Of a DNA stretch of 64,000 bases, positions 10,253 through 64,000 are shown one piece after another (the first letter of the stretch is position 1; every line of letters begins with the position of its first letter). Position numbers and translations under genes: made by a program. The stretch comes from an uncultured cyanobacterium (GTDB lineage: Bacteria > Cyanobacteriota > Cyanobacteriia > Cyanobacteriales > CAWCAG01), in contig CAWCAG010000005.1 of the NCBI GenBank assembly GCA_963793425.1, positions 778,174 to 842,173 on the forward strand. The letters run 5' to 3'. Under the pieces are notes generated by a model. That model had not been told where the DNA came from. It did not search any database and saw only the letters and a list, made by a program, of their open reading frames with translations.

Positions 10253-10334
10253 CTTTTGAATCACTGACTTAACGTTGTTCCTTGCTCTCAACAAATAGGC
10301 TACATTGAGGAAGTGTGCTTTTCAACAAGATTAA

Positions 10335-12158
10335 ATGACCATCCCTGCAAATTCACCCAGGAAAAGAAACCGCGAGAATGATTGGCGGTTGTTTCTAAAA
10401 CTTCTTCCCTACGCCCGTCGCAATCAAACAATCTTCTTTGTTTCCCTCGCTTTATTAATTCCCCTTTCTTTAGCTGGGGCAATCCAACCTCTGATTATTG
10501 GACAATCTATATCGCTATTGCGAGATGAACCTAGTTGGGGTTTTCTACAAGATTTGAGTTTAGCAGAAGGATTAAATACCCTTGTGGGCTTACTTTTGCT
10601 AACTATAATTTTACGGTTATTATTTAGTTCCCTCCAAGGCTATTTAGTACAGAAAGTAGGACAAGAAATCACCGCAGGAATTCGTGAGGACTTATTTGCC
10701 CACGTTACTTCCTTAGCAATGCGTTTCTTTGATAAAACCCCTGTAGGGAGGCTGGTAACACGCTTAACTAGTGACGTGGAAGCTTTGGGAGATGTTTTTG
10801 CTACTGGGGCAATTGGCATTGTTAGCGACATCGTTAATATTTTAATTATTATTGTCACCATCTTTTTATTGCAATGGAAATTAGCTTCCTTGCTTATTTT
10901 GATGTTGTTACCCATGACGGCTTTAATTATTTACTTTCAACATCAATATCGCCAAGCTAATTATAAAGTAAGAGAAGAACTTTCTACCCTTAATTCCATG
11001 TTGCAAGAAAATGTAGCTGGTATTAATATTGTGCAGTTATTTCGCCGGGAAAGCTTCAACGCGAAGATGTTTCGCCGGGTTAACCTCAGTTATCTCAAAG
11101 AAGTAGATAAAACTATCTTCCACGACTCAGCTATATCTGCTTCTTTAGAATGGATTTCTTTAGTAGCGATCGCAGGAGTATTATTATTAGGAGGTCGGGC
11201 TGTTTTAGGAGAAACTCTTACCTTCGGAGTCTTATCAGCTTTTATTCTTTATGCCCAGCGTTTCTTCGATCCTTTAAGGCGATTTGCTGAGAAGTTTACC
11301 ATGTTGCAAGCTGGTTTCACTGCTATTGAACGCATCAGCGAATTAATGAGTGAACCTGTAGAGATTAAAGATGCTGAAGGGTTACAGCTTAAAAATTTGC
11401 AAGTTAATAATTCCCTCAGTTCTAGCAAAAGTGGTGAGATTAAATTTGAGAATGTTTCCTTTGCTTACAAAGACGATGATTATGTCATCAAGAACTTAGA
11501 TTTTACCATCCATCCAGGAGAAAAAATTGCTTTAGTTGGGCCAACCGGGGCTGGGAAAAGTTCAATTATTCGCCTTCTCTGTCGCCTTTACGAACCTACT
11601 AAAGGGCGTATTATTATTGATGGCATTGATATCCGCGACTTAACCCAAGAAGAATTACGTCGTCATGTTGGTGTCATACTTCAAGAAAGTTTTCTTTTTG
11701 CCGGAGATGTGAAGCGTAATATTACCTTGGGAGAATCCTATAACTTAGAAGAAGTTAAGCAAGCTGCGATCGCCACGAATATTGATAACTTTATCCAACA
11801 ACTACCCCAAGGTTACGCGACTCAATTAAGAGAAAGGGGTACTAACTTATCTGGAGGACAAAAACAACTCCTCGCTTTTGCCCGTGTTGCCATTCGTGAT
11901 CCTCATATTTTAGTTTTAGATGAAGCCACAGCAAGTTTGGATGTGGGGACAGAAGCCTTAATTCAAGAAGCTTTAGAGAGCATTTTAGCAGAAAGAACCG
12001 CTATTATTATCGCTCACCGCCTTTCTACCATTCGCGATGTAGATCGGATTTTTGTACTTAAACGAGGCGAGTTAATCGAGTCAGGAAGTCATGAAGAGTT
12101 ATTGAATCAAGGGGGTATGTATGCAAGTTTGTATCGTTTGCAAATGCTTGAAGATTAG
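10335..12158 (+). CDS. ABC exporter, fused permease/ATPase
   Basis: 607 aa. Six-TM N-terminal half, Walker A GPTGAGKSS, signature LSGGQKQ and Walker B ILVLDEATA. Confidence 0.9.
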   Translation: MTIPANSPRKRNRENDWRLFLKLLPYARRNQTIFFVSLALLIPLSLAGAIQPLIIGQSISLLRDEPSWGFLQDLSLAEGLNTLVGLLLLTIILRLLFSSLQGYLVQKVGQEITAGIREDLFAHVTSLAMRFFDKTPVGRLVTRLTSDVEALGDVFATGAIGIVSDIVNILIIIVTIFLLQWKLASLLILMLLPMTALIIYFQHQYRQANYKVREELSTLNSMLQENVAGINIVQLFRRESFNAKMFRRVNLSYLKEVDKTIFHDSAISASLEWISLVAIAGVLLLGGRAVLGETLTFGVLSAFILYAQRFFDPLRRFAEKFTMLQAGFTAIERISELMSEPVEIKDAEGLQLKNLQVNNSLSSSKSGEIKFENVSFAYKDDDYVIKNLDFTIHPGEKIALVGPTGAGKSSIIRLLCRLYEPTKGRIIIDGIDIRDLTQEELRRHVGVILQESFLFAGDVKRNITLGESYNLEEVKQAAIATNIDNFIQQLPQGYATQLRERGTNLSGGQKQLLAFARVAIRDPHILVLDEATASLDVGTEALIQEALESILAERTAIIIAHRLSTIRDVDRIFVLKRGELIESGSHEELLNQGGMYASLYRLQMLED

Positions 12159-53664: not shown

Positions 53665-55377
53665 CTACATAACCTCCAGAGATAAAATAGTTTGGTCATC
53701 TTCTTGGACTTTATTGGTGTATTCTCCCAAGTGCTTTAGTAACTCGTCCAAGTTTAAAGGATCGGACTCTTGGAGTAGTAATTGCCAAAGACCTTGTTGA
53801 TTTAGCATTGAGCTAGCCTGGATTGTTTCATCCGCAGCCCCATTAGATTTGTTTACCATTGATCTTGTCACAGTTGCTTCTGTAATGCCATCACTAGTTA
53901 AAAGAAAAATATCACCCTGTTCTAAAGTTGAGTTACCCGCTTTCCCTTTCCAATCTTTAAGGATACCGAGGGGAATACCGCGAGTTTGTAAATAGTTTGG
54001 TTCTACTGTTATCTCTTTACTAGCATTTTTCCTCTGTTCAGCAACGGTACGATGCGACCAGAGCATAGGATAAATATGACCCGCATTAGCATAAGCTAGC
54101 TGGTTGGTGCTAGGAGTATAACGGGCTAAAACCATAGTTATAAAGCAGTTGGTGCTGAATAAATCTTCTGACATACTGCGGTTGAGGTTTTTCATCACTT
54201 CTTCTGGCTCTGGAGAAACTTCTTGGGCAACTTCTCTCCTCAGTACAGAAATGGCACTGGCCATAAATAAAGCCGCAGGTACACCCTTACCAGAAACATC
54301 AGCCACTGCCAACCAAACATCTCCTTGGGGATGGACATAAACTTCAAAGAAGTCTCCCCCTACTTCCCTAGCTGGGAAACAGCTAGCTTGGACAAAAACC
54401 CCTTCAACTTCTGGCCAGCTTTGACGTAAGATATTATTTTGAATCTGTCGAGCCACTTCTAATTCTGCTCGCATTTTTTCAGCTTGCTGTTGAGTTCTTT
54501 GTAAAAGCCTAGCTTGAGAAATTGCCAGGGCTGCTTGTTCACTCACAGCTTCTAGTAACTCAATATCAGATTCATCTTTAGCTGTAGCACTATCGATTTC
54601 ATAAAGAGAGAGAATTGCTAGTAATTCTTGCTGGCAGATTAGTGGCACAGCCAAGTGAAAGCAGTTTTCTTTACCAGTTTCTGCTGAGGTCAGCTTTTTA
54701 GTTTTTTGGCTCGATAAAACCTCTTGAAGCAAAGACTCTTCTTCTTGAGCAGAAATATCCCACTGGGCAACATTATTAATTTGAAAAGAGAAAGACTCTG
54801 GTAATATTTCCTGACCACTAATCGGCCGCAGCACTCCAGCTTTGGCCCCAAAATTCTCACCAATGGTTTTGACAATGGTTTGGGCCATACTGCTGTAGTC
54901 TAAGGATTCGCGAATTGTGTTAGTAATTTCATTTAATAACTCTTCGCGCCTCAAAACACGCCGCAGTTCATTAGTTCTTTGTTTAACAACCCTATAGGTA
55001 TCTGCTGCTTGTTGAACTACTGCTTTGAGCTTTTCAGGATTCCAAGGTTTGGTGATGTATTTGAAAACTTTACCGGAATTAATTGCTTCTACCAGGTCTT
55101 CAACATCGGTGTAACCAGTAAGAAGAATACGAATTGTATCGGGAAACCTTTCTACGGTTTTGCTTAAAAATTCTGTGCCATTCATAACTGGCATACGTTG
55201 ATCTGAGATGATTACAGCCATCTCTCCTTCCTTGTCAAGAATTTCGAGGGCGCTAAGGGCCCCATCCGCTTTACGAACTCGAAAATCTCGCCGGAAAGTC
55301 CGATAGAGCAAGTCTAAGTTGTCAGGCTCATCATCCACCACCATTAAATTAAGTTTGTTGCGGTTTGCCTGACTCAT
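53665..55377 (-). CDS. response regulator - GAF - PP2C/SpoIIE phosphatase (RsbU-like)
   Basis: 570 aa. REC (LMVVDDEPDNL, ISDQRMP, KPW), a GAF-like middle region and PP2C motifs (GGDFFEV, ADVSGKGVPAAL, LTSDGITEA). Confidence 0.85.
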   Translation of the reverse strand: MSQANRNKLNLMVVDDEPDNLDLLYRTFRRDFRVRKADGALSALEILDKEGEMAVIISDQRMPVMNGTEFLSKTVERFPDTIRILLTGYTDVEDLVEAINSGKVFKYITKPWNPEKLKAVVQQAADTYRVVKQRTNELRRVLRREELLNEITNTIRESLDYSSMAQTIVKTIGENFGAKAGVLRPISGQEILPESFSFQINNVAQWDISAQEEESLLQEVLSSQKTKKLTSAETGKENCFHLAVPLICQQELLAILSLYEIDSATAKDESDIELLEAVSEQAALAISQARLLQRTQQQAEKMRAELEVARQIQNNILRQSWPEVEGVFVQASCFPAREVGGDFFEVYVHPQGDVWLAVADVSGKGVPAALFMASAISVLRREVAQEVSPEPEEVMKNLNRSMSEDLFSTNCFITMVLARYTPSTNQLAYANAGHIYPMLWSHRTVAEQRKNASKEITVEPNYLQTRGIPLGILKDWKGKAGNSTLEQGDIFLLTSDGITEATVTRSMVNKSNGAADETIQASSMLNQQGLWQLLLQESDPLNLDELLKHLGEYTNKVQEDDQTILSLEVM

Positions 55378-55638
55378 TTACTCACTCCAGTTTGGCGATC
55401 CATTGAAAAAGACATCAGTGCGCTTATATTTTAAGAGCTTGACTGGCAAATTTTGCACCAACAAAAAGCTTACCAGCCAAATACCAGGACAATTAATCAT
55501 TTTAGATGCTAGTAAGGTTTAATTTCCGTAAGAGTCATTACCAACCCAATTAAAGAGTGGTTTGTTGGAGATTTGCTTCATAACTAAAAATAAGCTTAGT
55601 AGGTGAAGATTATATTATCGCTTGCTTTTTTCATCTCC

Positions 55639-56364
55639 TCAACCAACTAATCCTGAACGAAGAGCGCGAACAGCAGCTTGGGTGCGGTCATCAGCACATA
55701 ATTTGTTTAAAATATTACGAACGTGAGTTTTAACGGTTCCTACGGTAATAAAAAGTTTTTCAGCAATTTCAGCGTTGCTACAACCTTCGACAATAAGTTG
55801 AAGAACTTCTAGTTCCCTTTCCGTAAGAGGATAGGCTTCAATAAGTTGACTATATTCTGGCTCAGCAGCATTGATTCTCACTTTCCCTGGGTTCCCCGAA
55901 GGTACAGGGTTGGTTTCAGTGGAGGAACCTTTGGTTTGCGAGAGAATAATTCTGGCGATCGCCGGATCGATCCAAGCATTGCCCTCATGGGTTAATTTAA
56001 GTACCTCGATTAAGCGATCAAAGCTCATATTCTTCATACAGTAAGAATCAGCCCCAGCCGCAAAAGCAGCCAAAACAGCTTCTTCGTTATCGTGTAAAGT
56101 CAAAATCAAAATTTTGATTGGTTTTGATTCCCCTGATGAGGAATTTTCTTTTGATTTGCGAGTTAGCTCTATACCATCGATATCTGGCAGACCAATATCG
56201 ACTATACCGATATCAGGTTGGTAAGTTTCCAACAATTTTAAACCTTCAGTCCCATTAGCCGCTTCACCAACCAATTCGATCTCATTGGACTGTTGTAGTG
56301 CAGTCCTAAGTCCGACTCTAGTTAGATCGTGGTCTTCAATGAGAGCAACACGAATTTTACTCAT
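55639..56364 (-). CDS. NarL/FixJ-type response regulator (REC + LuxR HTH)
   Basis: 241 aa. IRVALIEDHDL, DIGIVDIGLPD and LTERELEVLQLIVEGCSNAEIAEKLFITVGTVKTHV. Confidence 0.9.
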   Translation of the reverse strand: MSKIRVALIEDHDLTRVGLRTALQQSNEIELVGEAANGTEGLKLLETYQPDIGIVDIGLPDIDGIELTRKSKENSSSGESKPIKILILTLHDNEEAVLAAFAAGADSYCMKNMSFDRLIEVLKLTHEGNAWIDPAIARIILSQTKGSSTETNPVPSGNPGKVRINAAEPEYSQLIEAYPLTERELEVLQLIVEGCSNAEIAEKLFITVGTVKTHVRNILNKLCADDRTQAAVRALRSGLVG

Positions 56365-56639
56365 CTTGAAAACGTTTCCCCAAAAAACTCTAATAACTAA
56401 TCAATAAAGTGTAGTATCTTCTCTAGCCTTTAGTTCAGATTGTCACAAATTACAGAAAATTGTCGTCAATACTTTGGTGAGCAATCAAAATTAAATTACT
56501 CTTAATATTTAACCTATCTTTAAGTTATGGGATGGTTAATTGGGCGTTGATTACTGACATAAAAGTCCTTAAATTTGTTTGACATGGGAAATAATTTTGC
56601 TGCTTTAGTATAAGTACTTTGAACTAGTAAGACAATCAA

Positions 56640-59339
56640 TTGAGACTAATTGATAGGAATGAAACCGTGAAAATTCTGGTGGTAGAAGATGATGAAATTG
56701 AACGTATGGTGCTGTACAAAGCCCTAATTAAAGCCAGGGCTGATATAGAAATGGAATCAGCCAATACCTGTGAGAGTGCTATTGCCAGCTTAAAACAACA
56801 AAGAGATTTTGAATGCGTTTTCCTGGACTACAGGTTGCCAGATGGTAGCGGCAGAGAACTAGTTGAAAAAATTCGTCGTGCAGAGATTAAAGTCCCCTTG
56901 GTGGTTTTAATCGCCCAAGGAGATGAGCATTATGCTGCTGATTTGATTAAAGCTGGGGCTTCTGATTATATTCCCCAAAGAAAAGTTTCTTCTGAGAGTT
57001 TGGCTCGTAGTCTTCACAATTCAGTACGCTTATACCATGCTGAGCAACAAGCTGATTTTGCGAATCGACGCTTGCAAGAAAGCGAGGAGATGTACCGCTT
57101 AGTTGTTGAAGGTTCTAATGATGGTATTTGGGATTGGGATCTTGATAGCCATAAAGTTTATGCCAATGATCGCCTTTTGGAAATGGTCGGTTTATCTCCC
57201 CAGGGAGTGACTGTTAATTATCAGCTCTTAAAAAAGTTATTACATTTAGGTGATCGCCTGAAGATTAGTCGGGCAGTTCGCGCTCATTTAAGGAAGCAAG
57301 CTAAGTTTGAGGTAGAGTTTCGGCTACGTCATGTGAGTGGGGAATACCTTTACTGTGTGGCGAGGGGAAAAGCCCAAAGGGATAGTAGCGGTAAGCCCCT
57401 AAGAATGTCTGGTATCGTTAGTGATATTACTGAGCGTAAACGCACAGAAGGGCGGACTCGCTTTTTAACTGAGGCCACGGAAGTTTTATCAGCTTCTTTA
57501 GATTATCAAACTACCCTAGAAAATCTTGCTCAGCTAGCTGTTCCTCGTTTAGCAGATTGGTGTGCTATTGATGTGGTTGATTCTCAGGGAGATTCTCGCC
57601 GTATCGCTGTTACCCACATAGAGCCTAGTAAAGAGGCTTTGGTGCGGCAGCTAGATTGCTCTGATGAGACAAAAGGTTATTGTCCTGTGGTTGGTTATGG
57701 CCAGGTTATTCATCGGGGCAAATCCGCTGCTTGTTTTTATGTTTCTGAAGAAAATTTAGCCCAAATAGCCAGGAATGAAGAACATCTAGAAAGACTCAAA
57801 AGTTTAAATATTCATTCTTATATTTGTGTACCCTTGAAAACTGGGGAAAGAACTTTAGGCTCTATTTTGTTTGTTTGGAGCGAATCTGGGCGCTGCTATA
57901 CCCAAGATGATTTTAAGCTAGCAGAAGATTTGGCCCATCGCGCAGCTTTGGCTATAGAAAATGCTCGACTGTTTCAAGAAGCCCATCAAGCGAGTGAGGA
58001 ACTACGCCAAGCTAATGCCATTTTAGGGGAACAACAACAACAACTACGTACTCTCCAGCAACTAACAAATTTATTGAATCATCGGCTCACAGATTTACCA
58101 GATTTGTTGCGGGTGATGGCCCGCTCTGTGTGCGAAGCTATTCCTGGAGCGCAGATTTGTTTTATTGCTTTATTTAATACTCAATGTAACCGTATGATGC
58201 TGACGGTGACTGCGGGGGTGGGGGAAGAAAGCCTCAGCTTGGAGGATGCTTCTTCTTCTAAGAGTTTGTTACGTCAAGTTTTTTTAACCGGGCAACCCAA
58301 GTTAATTCAAAGTCCTCAACAAGAAACAGGTTCAGCAAAAAGTTTGCCTCAGACGATTTATGCCGTACCAATCAAATCTGTGAAGTCAGGAAGTTTAGGA
58401 ATTTTGGCCATTGGTAATTGGGAAAATCCTACGGCTTTTGATAAAGAAGGACAATATCTTTTAACTGCTGTGGGAGAACAAGCTGCGATCGCCATTGATA
58501 ATGCTCGTTTGATTAATACCCTGGAAGAGAGGGAAGAGCGTTTAGAGTTTCAAAATCAAATTTTAGCAGAGCAAAATCAGGAGTTAGAAAGTCAGCGCTA
58601 CCAAATTCAACTGCAAAATTTGCAACTAATGGAAGCGGCAAAGATGAAGTCGCAATTCTTAGCAGTAATGTCCCATGAGTTGCGTACCCCCATGAATGCT
58701 ATTATTGGCTTTTCTCAAGTACTTTTACGTAAGAAAAACTCTGATACCCTAAGTGCCAATCAAGTACAGATGTTGGATAGAATTTATAATAATGGCAAGA
58801 CTCTTTTAGATTTAATTAATCATATTCTTGACCTTTCTAAAGCAGAAGCAGGACGTTTAGAATTACAAATTAAAGATTTTGATATTGTGCAGTTAGTGAG
58901 GACAACTATTGAGGAATTACGTCCTTTAGCTGATGAGAAATATTTAAGTTTAACATTTGATGTTAAGCTCAAACATTCTCGTGTTTGTAATGATAGCCTC
59001 CGTTTACGACAAATTGTCGTTAATCTCCTTTCTAATGCTATTAAGTTTACTGACAGAGGAAGCGTTGAGGTATTGATCCAAGAGGTAGATGAAGAGCATT
59101 TAGAAATAGCTGTTAAAGACACAGGTATTGGTATTAACGGGGAGCAGAAAGAGTATATTTTTGAAGAGTTTCGCCAAGTAGATCAAACCACGACCCGCAA
59201 ATATTCTGGTACGGGTTTAGGGTTAGCAATTACTGAGTCTTTGGTTAAGTTGATGCAAGGAGAAATTAGTGTAGAAAGTCAGCTTGGTGAAGGAGCTACT
59301 TTTAAGGTTAAGTTGCCTTATCGGGTTAGGTGTTGCTAA
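56640..59339 (+). CDS. hybrid sensor kinase: REC - PAS - GAF - GAF - HisKA - HATPase
   Basis: 899 aa from the TTG at 56640. An in-frame GTG at 56667 (VKILVVEDDE) is the more typical REC start. H-box SHELRTPMN. ATPase motifs KDTGIGI and GTGLGLAI. Confidence 0.9.
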   Translation: MRLIDRNETVKILVVEDDEIERMVLYKALIKARADIEMESANTCESAIASLKQQRDFECVFLDYRLPDGSGRELVEKIRRAEIKVPLVVLIAQGDEHYAADLIKAGASDYIPQRKVSSESLARSLHNSVRLYHAEQQADFANRRLQESEEMYRLVVEGSNDGIWDWDLDSHKVYANDRLLEMVGLSPQGVTVNYQLLKKLLHLGDRLKISRAVRAHLRKQAKFEVEFRLRHVSGEYLYCVARGKAQRDSSGKPLRMSGIVSDITERKRTEGRTRFLTEATEVLSASLDYQTTLENLAQLAVPRLADWCAIDVVDSQGDSRRIAVTHIEPSKEALVRQLDCSDETKGYCPVVGYGQVIHRGKSAACFYVSEENLAQIARNEEHLERLKSLNIHSYICVPLKTGERTLGSILFVWSESGRCYTQDDFKLAEDLAHRAALAIENARLFQEAHQASEELRQANAILGEQQQQLRTLQQLTNLLNHRLTDLPDLLRVMARSVCEAIPGAQICFIALFNTQCNRMMLTVTAGVGEESLSLEDASSSKSLLRQVFLTGQPKLIQSPQQETGSAKSLPQTIYAVPIKSVKSGSLGILAIGNWENPTAFDKEGQYLLTAVGEQAAIAIDNARLINTLEEREERLEFQNQILAEQNQELESQRYQIQLQNLQLMEAAKMKSQFLAVMSHELRTPMNAIIGFSQVLLRKKNSDTLSANQVQMLDRIYNNGKTLLDLINHILDLSKAEAGRLELQIKDFDIVQLVRTTIEELRPLADEKYLSLTFDVKLKHSRVCNDSLRLRQIVVNLLSNAIKFTDRGSVEVLIQEVDEEHLEIAVKDTGIGINGEQKEYIFEEFRQVDQTTTRKYSGTGLGLAITESLVKLMQGEISVESQLGEGATFKVKLPYRVRCC

Positions 59340-59425
59340 TTGCTAATTGCTAGTTGCCAATTGCTCTCTCCCTAGCTCCCTAGCTCCCTAGCTCCCTAGC
59401 CCCCCAGCTCCCAAGCTCCCCAGCT
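59333..59425. repeat. two abutting simple-sequence arrays: TTGCTAA x4.7 (59333-59365) and CCCTAGCT x7 (59370-59425)
   Basis: Together they occupy the entire spacer between two convergent genes and overlap both stop codons. Confidence 0.9.
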
Positions 59426-60182
59426 AATTAACAGTAAAGCCACCATCTACGGTAATTCCTTGCCCTAAGACAAAAGAAGCTTCAGGGGAAGATAACCAAA
59501 CCACTGCATCGGCAATTTCTTCTGGTTTACCAAATCTGCCAATAGGATGCAAAGACTTCGTTTGTTCTATGAGGGCAGCATCTCTTTCTAGAAACTCTTC
59601 TAGCATTCGAGTTTCAGTGAACCCTGGACAAACTGCATTAATCCGAATCTCTTGTTTGGCGTATGCTAAGGCAGCAGACTTCGTTAAACCCAGTACGGCG
59701 TGTTTAGAAGCAACATAGATTGCATGGCCAGGAAAGCCGACTAGACCAGCAATAGAGGCATTATTAACAATAGTCCCACCCCCGTTGGCTAACATATATT
59801 CAATTTCACATTTCATGGAATACCAGACTCCTTTAACGTTGACACCCATCACCAAATCGAAAGTTTCTTCCTTTTGATCTGGGAGCATAGCTTGAGGATC
59901 TTCTACTCCAGCATTGTTAAAAGCAGCGTGCAACCCACCGTAAGTATCGACTGTGTATTTGATTAAGTTTTGGACATTTTCAAATTTAGTTACATCTGCT
60001 TGACAAAAGCTAGCTTTACCCCCAGCTTTTTGAATTAGTTCAACGGTTTCTTGACCACCTTTTTCATGATGATCACCAACTACTACGGATGCCCCTTCCG
60101 AAGCAAATTTGAGGGCAGTAGCCCTACCAATACCAAAACTGCCACCAGTAACTAATGCCACTTTGTCAACAAATCGATCCAT
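59424..60182 (-). CDS. short-chain dehydrogenase/reductase (SDR)
   Basis: 252 aa. TGGSFGIGRA, NNAG and YVASKHAV. Confidence 0.9.
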   Translation of the reverse strand: MDRFVDKVALVTGGSFGIGRATALKFASEGASVVVGDHHEKGGQETVELIQKAGGKASFCQADVTKFENVQNLIKYTVDTYGGLHAAFNNAGVEDPQAMLPDQKEETFDLVMGVNVKGVWYSMKCEIEYMLANGGGTIVNNASIAGLVGFPGHAIYVASKHAVLGLTKSAALAYAKQEIRINAVCPGFTETRMLEEFLERDAALIEQTKSLHPIGRFGKPEEIADAVVWLSSPEASFVLGQGITVDGGFTVN

Positions 60183-60690: not shown

Positions 60691-61704
60691 ATGGCACAAG
60701 AAGAACAGAAACAGCTAATTGAAATATTAGAAGCACAACAGGGTAAATTTCTTAACGATAGTGAGAAAGCTGTTTTGCAAGGAATGTTGGCTGGGCAAAC
60801 TTACGAAGTTGTTAGTAAGGAAATTCCTTTAGATTACAATTATGTGCGGCAAATTGGCAGCAAATTGGTTAAAGATATTGGTGAAATTTTAAACAAAAAA
60901 GTCACGAAAAACACTCTTGCTGCTGCAGTAGAACAGCTTTTAGGGCAACAATTAAAACAAGAACCAAAATCGCAGCCCTTAAATCTTGATAATCCTTTTA
61001 TTCCTACTAGCGGAATTATTGAAACGCCACAGCTATTTTTCAATCGCGAGAAGGAAATCAAAGATATTTTTGAGTTACTAAATAGTCGTTCTAGCGTAGC
61101 TGTAATTGGAGAAAGACAAGTTGGTAAGTCTTCTTTACTTCAAGCCATTTTTCGTCAAGCAGAAACTCAATTACAACCTCCCCGTCGTCCTATTTACTTA
61201 CATTTGCAAGGAATTAGTAATGAGGAGGATTTTTATGCTTATCTTTGTGATGAAATTGATATTCCTCTGCAAACAGGTTATCAGTTAACTCGTGCTTTGA
61301 AAAAGCAGCATTTATTGTTACTTATTGACGAAATTGAAAAGATGAATGGGCCAGGTTTTACCCGTGATGTGAGAGAAAAACTTAGGAGTTTAGCAGAAGG
61401 AGAAAATGCGCCTTTGCGTTTAGTAGTGGCGGCGCGGACACCTTTAACAGAATTATTTCCCGACGATGAGCCTGGTAAAACCTCTCCCTTAGCTAACATT
61501 TGTCCACCCGTAGAAGTTCCGATTTGGCCAGAAAAAACAGCCCGTGATTTTATCCAATCTCGTTTAGCCATGTCCCCATTAAGTTCAACAATTACTTTCT
61601 CCGATTCAGAAATAGAAAGTCTATTAAAAGAAAGCAACTGTCACCCTCAAAAGCTAACCAGATTGTGCAATAAACTATATAGCAGCAAAAAAGGAGAAAT
61701 CTAA
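60691..61704 (+). CDS. P-loop NTPase (AAA/ATPase_2-like) with an N-terminal LuxR/sigma70-r4-like HTH
   Basis: 337 aa. The N-terminus LNDSEKAVLQGMLAGQTYEVVSKEI...YVRQIGSKLVKDI looks like an HTH. Then NPFIP...FFNREKEIKDIFELL, Walker A VIGERQVGKSSLL and Walker B LLLLIDEIEKM. Confidence 0.7.
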   Translation: MAQEEQKQLIEILEAQQGKFLNDSEKAVLQGMLAGQTYEVVSKEIPLDYNYVRQIGSKLVKDIGEILNKKVTKNTLAAAVEQLLGQQLKQEPKSQPLNLDNPFIPTSGIIETPQLFFNREKEIKDIFELLNSRSSVAVIGERQVGKSSLLQAIFRQAETQLQPPRRPIYLHLQGISNEEDFYAYLCDEIDIPLQTGYQLTRALKKQHLLLLIDEIEKMNGPGFTRDVREKLRSLAEGENAPLRLVVAARTPLTELFPDDEPGKTSPLANICPPVEVPIWPEKTARDFIQSRLAMSPLSSTITFSDSEIESLLKESNCHPQKLTRLCNKLYSSKKGEI

Positions 61705-61778
61705 CCCATAATCAACACATGATCTGGAATGTTGTAAGCATATACCGCCCACGAATAAATTCGCTGTCTCATAGCAAA

Positions 61779-61907
61779 AGTCATCTGAAGATGACTAGGA
61801 TACTGGTTTTTGGTAATTTGGTTACACTCTTTCCTAGGAAAAATCCCAGCACTGGTAGTCATCTTTAAGATGACTTAGGCTATTAGCCAGGGATTTTAAT
61901 CCTTGGC
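61779..61907. repeat. cluster of three short perfect or near-perfect hairpins (MITE-like dispersed-repeat module)
   Basis: agtcatc-tgaa-gatgact (61779-61796), agtcatc-tttaa-gatgact (61857-61875) and gccagggat-tttaa-tccttggc (61886-61907). The cluster lies in a 287-nt non-coding spacer. Confidence 0.6.
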
Positions 61908-61991
61908 GGGTTGAGTGAATAAGCAATTCATCTCTTTTTTGCAGCCTTCCAAGTTGTGTCAACAAAACCTACAACTCCCTACTCCTTAACC

Positions 61992-64000
61992 ATGACAGTT
62001 CCTCGCCTAGACTTAGCCCCAAAACTAAAGCGCCCTTTATCTCTTTGGAATCCTTTAGATTATTTGCGTTTACTCTATTGGGTGTTTTATTTTCCACAAG
62101 CTTTGCGATGGTATGGGGAAACTTTTGGTAGTGGGGTGAGTTTGAGTGATAAAAAGACTTGGCGAGAAAAATGGCAGTTGTTAACTGAGGATACTGTACA
62201 GCTTAAGTTTTTGCTACAGGGTTTGTTACTAACTTTTGTTGCACCATTACTGTTTTATTGGCTATTGGAAAGACGAGGAATTAATATCAGTTGGTTTGGT
62301 GTTGCGGTTGGTATTGCAGTAGGTGTTTTATTTTGCGTTTTGTTGAGCGTTGCAAATGGTGTTGAGGTTGGTATTGCAGCAGGGGTTTCGTTTAGCATTT
62401 CGTGGGGCATTTTGTTTAGCGTTGCGGTTGGTATTGCTGGAGGTGTTGCCACGGGAATTGCAGCATTCGCTGTCTTTAGTGTTGCAGGAGGCATTCCGTT
62501 AGGTGTTGTGACAGTTGCAGCATTCGCTGTCTTTAATGTTGCGATAAGTCTTGTGGCAGGTGTTTCGTTTAGCGTTTCGTTTGGAATTACAATAAGCTTA
62601 AGCATACTTCGCTTAGAAGCCTGGCTACTTGGCACAATCTTTTTCCCAAATCAGTTGTGGCAAACAAAACTAACTTGGAGTAGGACTACCTATCTTCCCT
62701 TGTTTGCCCTCTCCTCTCAGATCAAAACATGGATCAATCAAGATGAGTCAATTGCTATAGATAATATCAATCAGATTCTACGCTATACTCTCCAATGGAT
62801 TCCTGTAGTCAATGCTATTAACCAAGCACTAGCAGTAACTCCCAATGAACGAATTATTTGGCGAGTTACTCAGCTAACAAAATCTCCTTTTGACTGGAAG
62901 TTAATTCACCTTGCTTCTACTTCTTTGCAAGAAGAAATGAAATTGAGGGTTGTAGATATTCTTTTCTTGTTTTCTGGTCATTTGCAGCGTAGAATAATCC
63001 GTTTCTATCGAGGTACACGCCTTGACACATTCCCTCGTGCTACTGCTGCTGGCTTCTGGTATCTCCACGAAAAAGAACCCGCAAAAGCCCTGAAAGCATT
63101 CACTATTGTTCGTTCTCTGCTGTATGGCGAAGAACTCTTCATCCTTGCCCAAACCCTGACTAATTTCCACGAAATCCAAACCCTAAAAGACATTGCAGCA
63201 ATACCTTTGCCTACTCCTCCCCTGGAACCTTGGTTACGCCCCACAACCTGGGAAGCTATAGCAAAATTCCGACGGGCTATTGAAGATATCAAAGTAGTCC
63301 AATCTGGAACCTCTCGCGCCGCTAGATCCTTGGCTTTGAACCGCGCCCAAGGGGCATTGAAAGAAATATTAGATAACAAAGAAACTCTACCAGAAGCGGA
63401 AAGAGAGTTAATCATTGACATTGCTGCCACTTGGCAAGAAACTCTCCTCAGCATCACCGCAGAAATTGGTGAACTCGCCATCACCCAACCAGTAAAAAAT
63501 CCCTACATTGTTGGTGATCCTGTCACCGGGCAGCTTTTCCAAGGTAGAGAAGACATTCTGCGGCAATTAGAAGAACTTTGGGTAATGGGGGAACAACTGC
63601 AATCTGTGGTAATTTATGGGCATCGCCGCATGGGAAAAACCTCTCTGTTACTCAATGCTTCCAACTGTGTAGGAACAGGAATTAAAGTAGCCTTTATTAA
63701 CTTGCAGATATTAGGAAATTGCCCTCAAGGAGTAGTTGATATTTTAATTGCGATCGCCGATAGTATTTCTGAAGCAATTAATCTGCCTCCACCCCCAGAT
63801 GAAGAAATGCTCAGACTGCCCCAACGTGCTTTTAGACGTTACTTAAAGCAAGTAGAGGAAAAACTTAACCAAGAAAGCTTAATCGTTGCCTTAGACGAAT
63901 TTGAGAAAATTGAAGAATTAATCACAGCAGGTAAACTTTCCCCTGACTTCCTGGGTTTCCTCCGAGGTTGTGTACAACTTAGTTCTCGCATTGCCTTTGC
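61992..64000 (+). CDS. multi-TM glycine-zipper repeat domain fused to a P-loop NTPase (partial, continues past the window end)
   Basis: Not in the supplied track. My translation from the ATG at 61992 has no stop over 669 codons. It contains about 110 aa of G/A/V/F-rich TM repeats, then NPYIVGDPVTGQLFQGRED, Walker A YGHRRMGKTSLL (~63618-63650) and Walker B LIVALDEFEKI (~63879). Confidence 0.8.
   Translation, partial: MTVPRLDLAPKLKRPLSLWNPLDYLRLLYWVFYFPQALRWYGETFGSGVSLSDKKTWREKWQLLTEDTVQLKFLLQGLLLTFVAPLLFYWLLERRGINISWFGVAVGIAVGVLFCVLLSVANGVEVGIAAGVSFSISWGILFSVAVGIAGGVATGIAAFAVFSVAGGIPLGVVTVAAFAVFNVAISLVAGVSFSVSFGITISLSILRLEAWLLGTIFFPNQLWQTKLTWSRTTYLPLFALSSQIKTWINQDESIAIDNINQILRYTLQWIPVVNAINQALAVTPNERIIWRVTQLTKSPFDWKLIHLASTSLQEEMKLRVVDILFLFSGHLQRRIIRFYRGTRLDTFPRATAAGFWYLHEKEPAKALKAFTIVRSLLYGEELFILAQTLTNFHEIQTLKDIAAIPLPTPPLEPWLRPTTWEAIAKFRRAIEDIKVVQSGTSRAARSLALNRAQGALKEILDNKETLPEAERELIIDIAATWQETLLSITAEIGELAITQPVKNPYIVGDPVTGQLFQGREDILRQLEELWVMGEQLQSVVIYGHRRMGKTSLLLNASNCVGTGIKVAFINLQILGNCPQGVVDILIAIADSISEAINLPPPPDEEMLRLPQRAFRRYLKQVEEKLNQESLIVALDEFEKIEELITAGKLSPDFLGFLRGCVQLSSRIAF

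Follow-up and report, generated by a model that had tools for sequence, protein, structure and literature searches.

A cyanobacterial tandem pair of STAND-like NTPases with a variable-head subunit and a glycine-repeat partner: a candidate conflict system

Displacement of effectors on a constant scaffold has been described as a hallmark of biological conflict systems, and such systems have been linked to multicellular bacteria (Kaur et al. 2020, PMC7159879). Among them EACC1 is a membrane-associated, two-gene system that combines a constant, small, glycine-patch transmembrane (TM) protein with a variable, caspase-fused partner; a sensor role was first proposed for its glycine-patch TM helix (PMC7159879), and a recent preprint describes the system as a pore former licensed by proteolysis (Evans et al. 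2025, PMC12642450). nSTAND1, a clade of STAND NTPases, was likewise described from counter-invader systems of multicellular bacteria, in some cases within EACC1 systems (Kaur et al. 2021, PMC8195603). Very long glycine arrays of period 4 are otherwise described in cyanobacteria, as far as we found, only for the GlyZip of calcyanin (ccyA), a protein linked to CaCO3 biomineralization in which three fixed C-terminal units of ~50 residues carry a central Gly-Pro and signature residues (Benzerara et al. 2022, PMC8890360). Here we examine two adjacent genes, A and B, at the 3' end of a 64,000-nucleotide stretch of DNA from an uncultured cyanobacterium (assembly GCA_963793425.1, contig CAWCAG010000005.1, positions 778,174 to 842,173 of the forward strand; hereafter the window). 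The evidence makes it very likely that they represent a conserved two-gene cassette of paralogous STAND-like NTPases, in which a constant, membrane-associated subunit (B) is paired with a subunit bearing a variable head (A).

A tandem pair of STAND-like NTPases

Gene B starts with the ATG at position 61992, and its plus-strand frame runs for 669 codons (61992..64000, 2009 nt) without a single stop to the end of the window; a sequence-only reading of this DNA had delineated the same frame, and our translation is identical to the one it gave. These 669 residues are 100% identical, over their full length, to the N-terminal part of an 872-residue database protein (P0001), which supplies the remaining codons and with them the extension to the full protein that the same reading had called for. 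Homology searches recovered 481 proteins with E <= 0.001 (best E < 1e-190), hundreds of them full-length. As the exact match to P0001 and the many full-length homologs are far beyond chance, B is a real gene. The N-terminus typical of the family, M..(V)PRLDLAPKLKRPLSLWNPLDY, also written M..VPRLDLAPKLKRPLSLWNPLDY, agrees with the ATG at 61992, which is therefore favored as the start, an in-frame GTG at 61956 being less likely. The frame is indeed missing from the list of open reading frames (ORFs) that accompanied the DNA, as had been remarked, but this absence has no biological meaning, since the listing rule skips ORFs that run past the end of the source. Three minus-strand ORFs (62255-62635, 62901-63179 and 63005-63484) do appear in that list exactly as claimed; we rejected them as genes because they are shadows of the B frame, which has homologs at E = 0.

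From the 497 B relatives detected we fetched 80 loci in species-representative genomes and clustered all their flanking ORFs. In 75 of 81 loci the gene immediately upstream of B, in the same orientation, is a homolog of A, and most of the loci without such a neighbor end at contig borders or show visibly disrupted spacers. Gene-neighborhood conservation, which had been proposed as a check of the earlier reading, hence reveals B as one half of a two-gene cassette, the upstream member of which had been overlooked. In the window this member, A (60691..61704, plus strand), encodes 337 residues that match P0271 ('MAG: Spirulinaceae cyanobacterium') at 100% and combine a GerE/LuxR-type helix-turn-helix (HTH) with an nSTAND1-type NTPase. 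Among the 49 loci in which the start of B could be placed, the two genes overlap by 4 nt in 8 and lie at most 30 nt apart in 15. Profile-profile comparison with hhalign recovered the NTPase regions of A and B as homologous over 226 columns (probability 95.5%, E=1.5e-8), from a 'NPF/NPY...F.GRE' motif preceding the P-loop to the GxP motif of the lid ('GGHP' in A, 'GQPY' in B), from which we conclude that A and B are a tandem pair of paralogous STAND-like NTPases. Moreover, the pairwise identities of A and B co-vary across the loci (Pearson 0.66, permutation p=0.001).

The NTPase of B with its helical lid spans residues 516-~800, of which residues 516-669 (63537..63998, plus strand) lie in the window. 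This part contains an intact Walker A motif (VVIYGHRRMGKTSLL, with GHRRMGKTS at 63618-63644) and an intact Walker B motif at 63882-63905 (LIVALDEFEKI, containing ALDEFE), both on the plus strand; the lid with its GxP motif and the winged helix (residues ~800-865) fall beyond the window, within residues 700-865 of P0001. Across 40 B homologs, G543-K549, S551, D635 and E636, as well as G734-Q735-P736 of the lid, are invariant. The best Pfam match of P0001 is ATPase_2 (PF01637), at 31.9 bits (E=1.5e-7) slightly below the 33.2-bit cutoff, with further matches to AAA_16 and AAA_22; many B homologs bear a precomputed PF01637 match, and HTH_IclR is matched in the winged-helix region of homologs. In Foldseek searches the last ~350 residues matched ORC1/Cdc6 (2qby, 2v1u), the archaeal ATPase_2 proteins 2qen and 2fna (target TM-score ~0.5), RuvB and the NB-ARC domains of plant NLRs, the top match being the NRC4 resistosome (E=1.1e-7, root-mean-square deviation (rmsd) 26 A). 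With Walker A and B motifs, a GxP lid and a winged helix all in place, B belongs with the STAND-like NTPases. The STAND/AAA-like switch NTPase that had been recognized from the Walker motifs is thus confirmed, whereas the C-terminal winged helix had been missed. No TPR, WD40 or LRR sensor repeats were found C-terminal to the NTPase of B, which ends ~10 residues past the winged helix and whose sole alpha-repeat-like domain sits N-terminal to the NTPase. Superstructure repeats at the C-terminus are reportedly common, though not universal, in the STAND superfamily.

The region upstream of the NTPase had been described as a helical linker of about 270 residues. It is helical, but it is no linker: modeled in isolation with AlphaFold2 (AF2), residues ~236-495 (62697..63476, plus strand) form a confidently folded, all-alpha domain of ~14 helices (predicted local distance difference test (pLDDT) 79, predicted TM-score (pTM) 0.76). 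This domain represents an orphan fold, as Foldseek searches against the PDB returned nothing at E <= 0.001 (best E=0.29, TM-scores at most 0.3) beyond a faint TPR- and 14-3-3-like resemblance. At the other end, the first 47 residues (61992..62132, plus strand) constitute an aromatic and basic motif (PRLDLAPKLKRPLSLWNPLDYLRLLYWVFYFPQALRWY) with the highest conservation in the protein (mean fraction of the majority residue 0.93, against 0.81 in the ATPase). A phmmer search with residues 1-100 against 1.84 billion representative proteins gave 191 matches, of which the 150 listed were checked for their architecture: 47 are full length (at least 780 residues) and 103 are shorter, 78 of the latter aligning with P0001 up to their own end, as expected of fragments with the same architecture, and 8 carrying longer unmatched tails. 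At least 125 share the architecture of B, and no different domain joined to this N-terminal module was identifiable among these 150. The motif is followed by a hydrophobic helix (residues 68-94; 62193..62273, plus strand; Kyte-Doolittle hydropathy >= 1.6), which AF2 models as a helix with low confidence and which is a candidate first TM segment. B as a whole yielded no NCBIfam match at E <= 0.01, and a profile search against PDB sequences gave nothing significant (best E=0.12); together with the PADLOC searches and the literature, these results agree with the earlier impression that B lies outside the characterized families.

The A protein of the window matches nSTAND1 (PF20703) at 33.5 bits (cutoff 27.1) and AAA_22 at 43.2 bits. 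All 66 of the B-adjacent A proteins scanned match nSTAND1 with E <= 0.001, covering only the first ~160-240 of the 379 profile positions, since the C-terminal part of this domain is missing from A. Its NTPase core and helical lid (residues 113-337; 61027..61701, plus strand) contain the Walker A motif GERQVGKSS (61108-61134, plus strand) and the Walker B motif LLLLIDE. The residue following the Walker B aspartate is asparagine in 37 of the 66 proteins and glutamate in 24, including the window copy (residue 214, 61330-61332); the sequences suggest two classes of A, one hydrolysis-competent and the other possibly restricted to nucleotide binding. PADLOC-DB v2 gave a weak, partial match of A to PDC-S01 (E=2.3e-6) and NCBIfam a weak match to DS8 (23.7 bits against a cutoff of 790).

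By comparison, the N-terminal ~100-220 residues of A vary by lineage. In the window the head (residues ~17-70; 60739..60900, plus strand) is of the GerE/LuxR type: alone it has no Pfam match at E <= 0.01, but a profile of its subtype matches GerE (1fse, E=1.3e-5) as well as the DNA-binding domains of VraR, DesR and NarL. Among the 66 B-adjacent heads, 13 are caspase-like CHAT proteases and 3 Trypsin_2 domains, and others are HTHs of XRE-like or further LuxR-like forms. The catalytic residues are intact in both protease types, namely the His/Cys dyad of CHAT ('HFSGHG', 'LNAC') and H, D and S of trypsin. In the A family at large, irrespective of adjacency to B, there are also heads of the HEPN_Swt1 (RNase) and EAD9 (adaptor) types. 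Individual comparisons illustrate the replacement of A next to a near-constant B: two loci (L004 and L046) share 92% identity in B and 50% in A, and the HTH-type pair of Fischerella and the CHAT-type pair of Pelatocladus share 85% and 59%, respectively. B is the constant and A the variable partner of the cassette. In 6 of 75 loci (L007, L021, L030, L038, L051 and L060) A is broken into two ORFs, as is B in one (L069); frameshifting, pseudogene formation or faulty assembly of metagenome-assembled genomes could account for these splits, which would be consistent with occasional loss of function.

In the window, A and B are separated by an unusually long spacer of 287 nt (61705-61991). It harbors an inverted repeat (61745..61909) with 45-nt arms that are 78% complementary and 75 nt apart, and with a nested, perfect 10-nt stem; this is probably a small inserted element similar to a miniature inverted-repeat transposable element, or else a regulatory hairpin. 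Elsewhere the spacer or the position of A is occupied by small ORFs (L037:9388-9666, L061:7755-9640, L076:7766-9787, L029:7318-9372), which by the look of their sequence, family searches aside, are DUF433-like, Rpn/PD-(D/E)XK-like, nucleotidyltransferase-like and a TnpB remnant. The spacer thus seems to be a hot spot of insertion. Two loci show a tandem B-A-B arrangement (L072:4764-12448, in Oscillatoria sp. PCC 10802, and L070:1-4796), in which a second full-length B without an A of its own precedes the pair, pointing to local duplication of the putative membrane subunit.

The glycine-repeat array of gene B

Downstream of the first hydrophobic helix, residues 101-206 of B (62292..62609, plus strand) form an array of (G/S)-(V/I)-(A/S)-x tetrads. 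In the window copy Fourier analysis places the peaks for G/S and for V/I at exactly 4.0 residues, V/I showing a period-2 signal in addition, and the Kyte-Doolittle hydropathy of 19-residue windows is >= 1.6 almost throughout residues 96-206. The hydrophobic block that had been read as a GxxxG-type repeat is hence upheld in both its periodicity and its hydropathy. Across the family the consensus reads G-V-A-x, with frequencies of 89% for G, 82% for V and 62% for A and a fourth position filled mostly by F, L, V, G or S; the arrays have a median of 22 tetrads, ~2% charged residues and a median proline fraction of 0. By this measure the window copy is degenerate, with S, F or A often in place of G. 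The array displays the tandem (G,A,S)xxxGxxxG pattern of the transmembrane glycine zipper (Kim et al. 2005). Matches to the Pfam families Gly-zipper_Omp, Gly-zipper_OmpA and Gly-zipper_YMGG were absent at E <= 0.1 for P0001 and four homologs, and we accordingly rejected membership in a Pfam glycine-zipper family.

TRF was applied to the DNA of 73 arrays, those of the window and of the fetched loci, and it is on the periods so obtained that the repeat period rests, as a modulo-4 test of the length differences is unreliable owing to imprecise regular-expression anchors. A repeat was found in 69 of the 73, with the best period a multiple of 12 nt in 64 of these 69; in some arrays a 12-nt unit recurs as many as 37 times, at 75-97% identity. 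The array DNA of the window retains decayed 60-nt and 57-nt repeats. Near-perfect 12-nt arrays are present in L016 (around 10300-10670), L033 and L074, with 27, 15 and 27 copies at 95, 97 and 93% matches, respectively. Such arrays imply very recent expansion or concerted evolution, whereas the array of the window is old and degenerate. The length of the array is unequal in 97% of the ortholog pairs whose C-terminal parts are ~89% identical, with a median difference of 20 residues; one pair from Microcoleus has arrays of 63 and 146 residues in proteins that are 94% identical elsewhere, and the range across the family is about 40 to 170 residues. The array is thus a hypervariable 12-nt coding minisatellite. 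Given that lengths differ between close orthologs while the pattern is kept, the G-V-A-x periodicity is evidently maintained despite a rapid turnover in length.

The Kyte-Doolittle hydropathy speaks for a TM array. In the window copy the array is interrupted by polar residues, which leaves apolar runs of 23, 43, 12 and 24 residues, compatible with about 4-5 membrane spans. A TM reading of the family calls for caution, as 24% of the homologs have unbroken apolar runs of at least 60 residues and 5% have runs of at least 90 residues, in either case with no obvious turns. The alternation of small and large residues would also suit a beta structure of the silk or amyloid kind, in which G/A and V/F/L would line opposite faces; the two periods of V/I, the high valine and near-zero proline content, the long turnless runs and the tolerance of free length variation are all compatible with such a structure.

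Comparison with described systems and genomic distribution

Among the described systems EACC1 offers the closest parallel in organization: both are two-gene cassettes of multicellular bacteria that join a constant, glycine-rich membrane protein, a putative one in the case of B, to a variable partner, which may bear a protease head. The partner in EACC1 is often caspase-like and sometimes carries a STAND NTPase, including nSTAND1. However, EACC1 is mainly actinobacterial, its protein of ~12 kDa has a single TM helix but lacks an ATPase, and its gene lies on the 5' side of the partner gene. The cyanobacterial B, in contrast, has 872 residues, a STAND-like ATPase of its own and a ~100-residue array, and its gene lies on the 3' side of A; no relationship in sequence between the two was detected. 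The partners differ as well, for most A proteins bear an HTH rather than a protease. We therefore rejected membership in EACC1, none of the features that would define it being found in B.

The pair also resembles the paired and helper NLRs and the coiled-coil (CC) NLR resistosomes (ZAR1, NRC4) of plants. As in the former, two paralogous STAND proteins are encoded together, and as in the latter an N-terminal membrane-acting module, putative in the case of B, precedes an NB-ARC-type NTPase and a winged helix, and would be expected to assemble when nucleotide drives oligomerization. The similarity to CC-NLRs is confined to the NTPase core, as reflected in the rmsd of 26 A; B lacks an LRR, TPR or WD sensor C-terminal to the NTPase, and where CC-NLRs have a soluble bundle of four helices its putative membrane module is a repeat that is hydrophobic constitutively. 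With the archaeal ATPase_2 ('Arch_ATPase', PF01637) proteins and ORC1/Cdc6, B shares the AAA+ base, lid and winged helix, as well as the 'F.GRE' motif ahead of the P-loop and the GxP motif of the lid. The archaeal ATPase_2 proteins, in contrast, are soluble, of ~350 residues and have no established function, and they are without the N-terminal motif, the array and the alpha domain.

As for the array, the calcyanin GlyZip is likewise a long, apolar, period-4 array of glycine and small residues in cyanobacteria, for which no structure is known, and both are longer than the classical GxxxGxxxG zippers. Unlike GlyZip, the B array is N-terminal, almost free of proline, hypervariable in length as a minisatellite and fused to an ATPase. 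Going by the published description of GlyZip, we rejected membership in this family, as B has no fixed units of ~50 residues and a median proline of 0. NCBIfam presumably holds a PdsO model, which is reportedly matched by part of calcyanin; B has no NCBIfam match. Transmembrane glycine zippers are said to occur in toxins and channels such as VacA. In such proteins tandem GxxxG motifs within hydrophobic segments self-associate and perturb membranes; the B array compares with them by its sequence pattern. Their zippers are of ~3 units, in small proteins that are secreted or form channels, against ~22 tetrads on a predicted cytoplasmic ATPase in B. The bacteriocin-like glycine-zipper proteins CdzC/D of Caulobacter reportedly aggregate (PMC5380434).

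In amyloid signaling of the BASS type, which pairs a Bell effector with an NLR, one short motif ends the effector and recurs N-terminally in the NLR encoded beside it. No such motif is common to A and B, and we rejected this assignment: G-[VIL]-x-x-G-[VIL] tetrads number at most one per A protein (mean 0.05), whereas B has a median of 8 in strict succession. In the literature on glycine zippers, nSTAND1, EACC1 and cyanobacterial STAND proteins and programmed cell death we found no description of the A-B pair, nor is it described in Kaur 2020/2021, the DGR paper, a 2026 STAND survey or the BASS preprint.

The 80 fetched loci with B relatives are all cyanobacterial and almost all from filamentous forms, comprising Nostocales, Oscillatoriales, Coleofasciculaceae, Leptolyngbyaceae, Spirulinaceae and one member of the Xenococcaceae; this listing of taxa reflects the best 80-120 matches, so that unicellular taxa may also carry relatives. 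The sole plasmid match comes from Acinetobacter ursingii (NZ_MH220285; L081:4385-8356), with 26% identity over residues 470-861, that is, the ATPase-winged-helix module. This homolog forms the C-terminal part of a 1323-residue 'N-6 DNA methylase' in an operon resembling type I restriction-modification systems, beside another ATP-binding protein.

Upstream of the pair, the window contains a dense signaling cluster (53665-60182). It consists of a REC-GAF-SpoIIE (PP2C) phosphatase (53665-55377, minus strand), a REC-GerE response regulator (55639-56364, minus strand), a REC-PAS-GAF-GAF-HisKA-HATPase hybrid kinase (56640-59339, plus strand) and an SDR protein (59424-60182, minus strand). Kinase-like and SDR-like ORFs recur in 9 and 6 other loci, respectively, while the phosphatase and the response regulator have no counterpart there. 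As only the kinase and the SDR protein recur, and in few loci, the cluster as a whole is not conserved beside A-B.

Possible functions of the pair

On balance we lean towards a role of the pair in biological conflict or cell death. Such a role is favored by the swapping of effectors on A, the affiliation of A with nSTAND1, the restriction to multicellular cyanobacteria and the precedent of EACC1. The cyanobacterial, almost entirely filamentous spread fits the proposed link between conflict systems and multicellularity (PMC7159879), and we also count as support the split or frameshifted A genes in 6 loci and the insertion of mobile elements in the spacer. Within this role, B is a plausible, putative NTP-gated membrane-perturbing effector, which is the reading we place first. 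By analogy with CC-NLR resistosomes and glycine-zipper toxins we tentatively propose that nucleotide-driven oligomerization might cluster the B arrays and so permeabilize the membrane, with A providing transcriptional or proteolytic control. In such a mechanism B would reside in the cytoplasmic or thylakoid membrane by means of its hydrophobic helix and array, with the ATPase facing the cytoplasm. A trigger would be sensed by the alpha domain of B, its winged helix or A, and would lead to nucleotide-dependent oligomerization, possibly into mixed A/B rings. The oligomers would bring the glycine-zipper arrays together and the membrane would be permeabilized or depolarized. The head of A could provide a second output, namely transcriptional control in the case of the HTHs, and proteolysis, possibly including a licensing cleavage of B, or RNA cleavage elsewhere.

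Several observations weigh against this interpretation, and it is the stable housekeeping neighborhood and the predominance of HTH heads that chiefly weaken a conflict role. In ~20-27 Nostocales loci from many genera the pair is embedded among psbB, an S1-like protein and oligopeptide ABC-transporter genes, which is a stable, housekeeping, chromosomal site and not a defense island. About 70% of the A proteins bear an HTH and no killing enzyme, which would equally fit plain signal transduction. The core of B is a median 82% identical within genera, mostly tracks taxonomy and is far more conserved than A. No relatives were found in phage genomes, IMG/VR viral contigs or cyanobacterial plasmids, and a mobile origin of the pair is rejected on these grounds. 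Against PADLOC-DB v2, B gave only a weak, partial P-loop match (PDC-S27, E=2.5e-5 over 123 residues), and classical C-terminal sensor repeats are present in neither A nor B. A further set of observations concerns the membrane: on the Hessa scale, each protein has 1-2 19-residue segments with dG <= 1 kcal/mol and most lie at +2 to +6, which makes insertion marginal; AF2 yields no usable model of the array (pLDDT 27-50); and the median 20-residue change between close orthologs would flip the topology of discrete TM helices, so that the free variation in length clashes with a fixed number of spans and a cytoplasmic ATPase.

The main rival to membrane permeabilization, which we hold to be rather unlikely, is that the N-terminal motif, the helix and the array only tether B to the membrane or sense its perturbation or that of the envelope, as in phage entry or lipid stress. 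B would then be a receptor and not the executioner, and the head of A the sole output, acting on transcription by way of the HTH and, in the variants, by cleaving proteins or RNA. This would account for the HTH in the effector position of most A proteins and for the location of the killing domains, where present, on A rather than B; it is also in keeping with the conserved, vertical inheritance of B, as expected of a signaling component, with the proximity of the window pair to a dense two-component cluster and with the sensor role proposed for the TM helix of EACC1 by Kaur et al. (2020). However, later work showed that EACC1 forms pores rather than acting as a sensor, a simple anchor would have no need of a ~100-residue glycine zipper or of a minisatellite that keeps its pattern, and the layout of B, an N-terminal effector plus NTPase, is typical of STAND executors.

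We regard it as distinctly unlikely that A-B serves, in place of any conflict or death role, as a housekeeping or developmental regulator, that is, a membrane-tethered, ATP-dependent transcriptional switch for the integrity of the envelope, thylakoid or filament, with a logic like that of MalT. Such a regulator would be at home at the stable syntenic site near psbB, the S1-like protein and the dpp genes, and it would explain the agreement of B with taxonomy under strong purifying selection on its N-terminal motif and ATPase, the DNA-binding-type domains in both proteins (the GerE HTH of A and the winged helix of B) and the absence of the pair from the mobile elements searched. It is hard to reconcile, though, with the displacement of the HTH of A by catalytically intact CHAT and trypsin domains in B-adjacent copies and, across the A family at large, by HEPN and EAD9. 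The replacement of A beside a constant B and its pseudogene-like or split state in 6 loci also argue against it, as does the description of nSTAND1 so far in conflict contexts only. Finally, we consider it improbable that the (G-V-A-x)n array is not transmembrane at all but a silk- or amyloid-like cross-beta element that polymerizes B into signaling filaments or aggregates, akin to the prion-like amplification of fungal and bacterial NLR systems, for although its alternating pattern, marginal translocon-scale hydrophobicity, failure in AF2 and the aggregation of CdzC/D could be so explained, A lacks the matching motif that is the hallmark of BASS- and HET-s-type signaling, the array follows a hydrophobic helix and an aromatic motif of interfacial appearance, and polar residues cut the window copy into TM-sized segments.

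Returning to B as a putative membrane-perturbing effector, one may extend this reading to an undescribed, lineage-wide cell-death or immunity module, in which the executioner would be a self-associating glycine-zipper polymer, its length reset by the 12-nt minisatellite, assembled by the STAND ATPase and licensed or regulated by a swappable partner (HTH, CHAT, trypsin or HEPN). We offer this extension, which treats the hypervariability of the array as functional, as a long shot; under it, such variability could permit escape from phage inhibitors or determine self/non-self compatibility of zippers between filaments.

The pair is best classed with the NTPase-centered conflict systems of multicellular bacteria, with the hypervariable glycine-zipper minisatellite as its unusual and unexplained feature. 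This array clearly exemplifies a coding minisatellite in which a strict structural pattern persists through length turnover, and it bears on the biophysics of membrane proteins and amyloids as well as on the comparison with calcyanin GlyZip. The small size of both genes makes them amenable to genetic work in Nostoc or Anabaena. If our interpretation is correct, a long, fast-evolving glycine-zipper array coupled directly to a STAND switch would constitute a new effector principle, and A and B would be a natural instance of paired STAND proteins, of which B is the constant subunit at the membrane and A the exchangeable one for output. With ~500 relatives among species-representative genomes, and every examined locus cyanobacterial, they would then represent a widespread, unstudied, NTPase-centered immune or cell-death system that links multicellular bacteria to the biology of eukaryotic NLRs.

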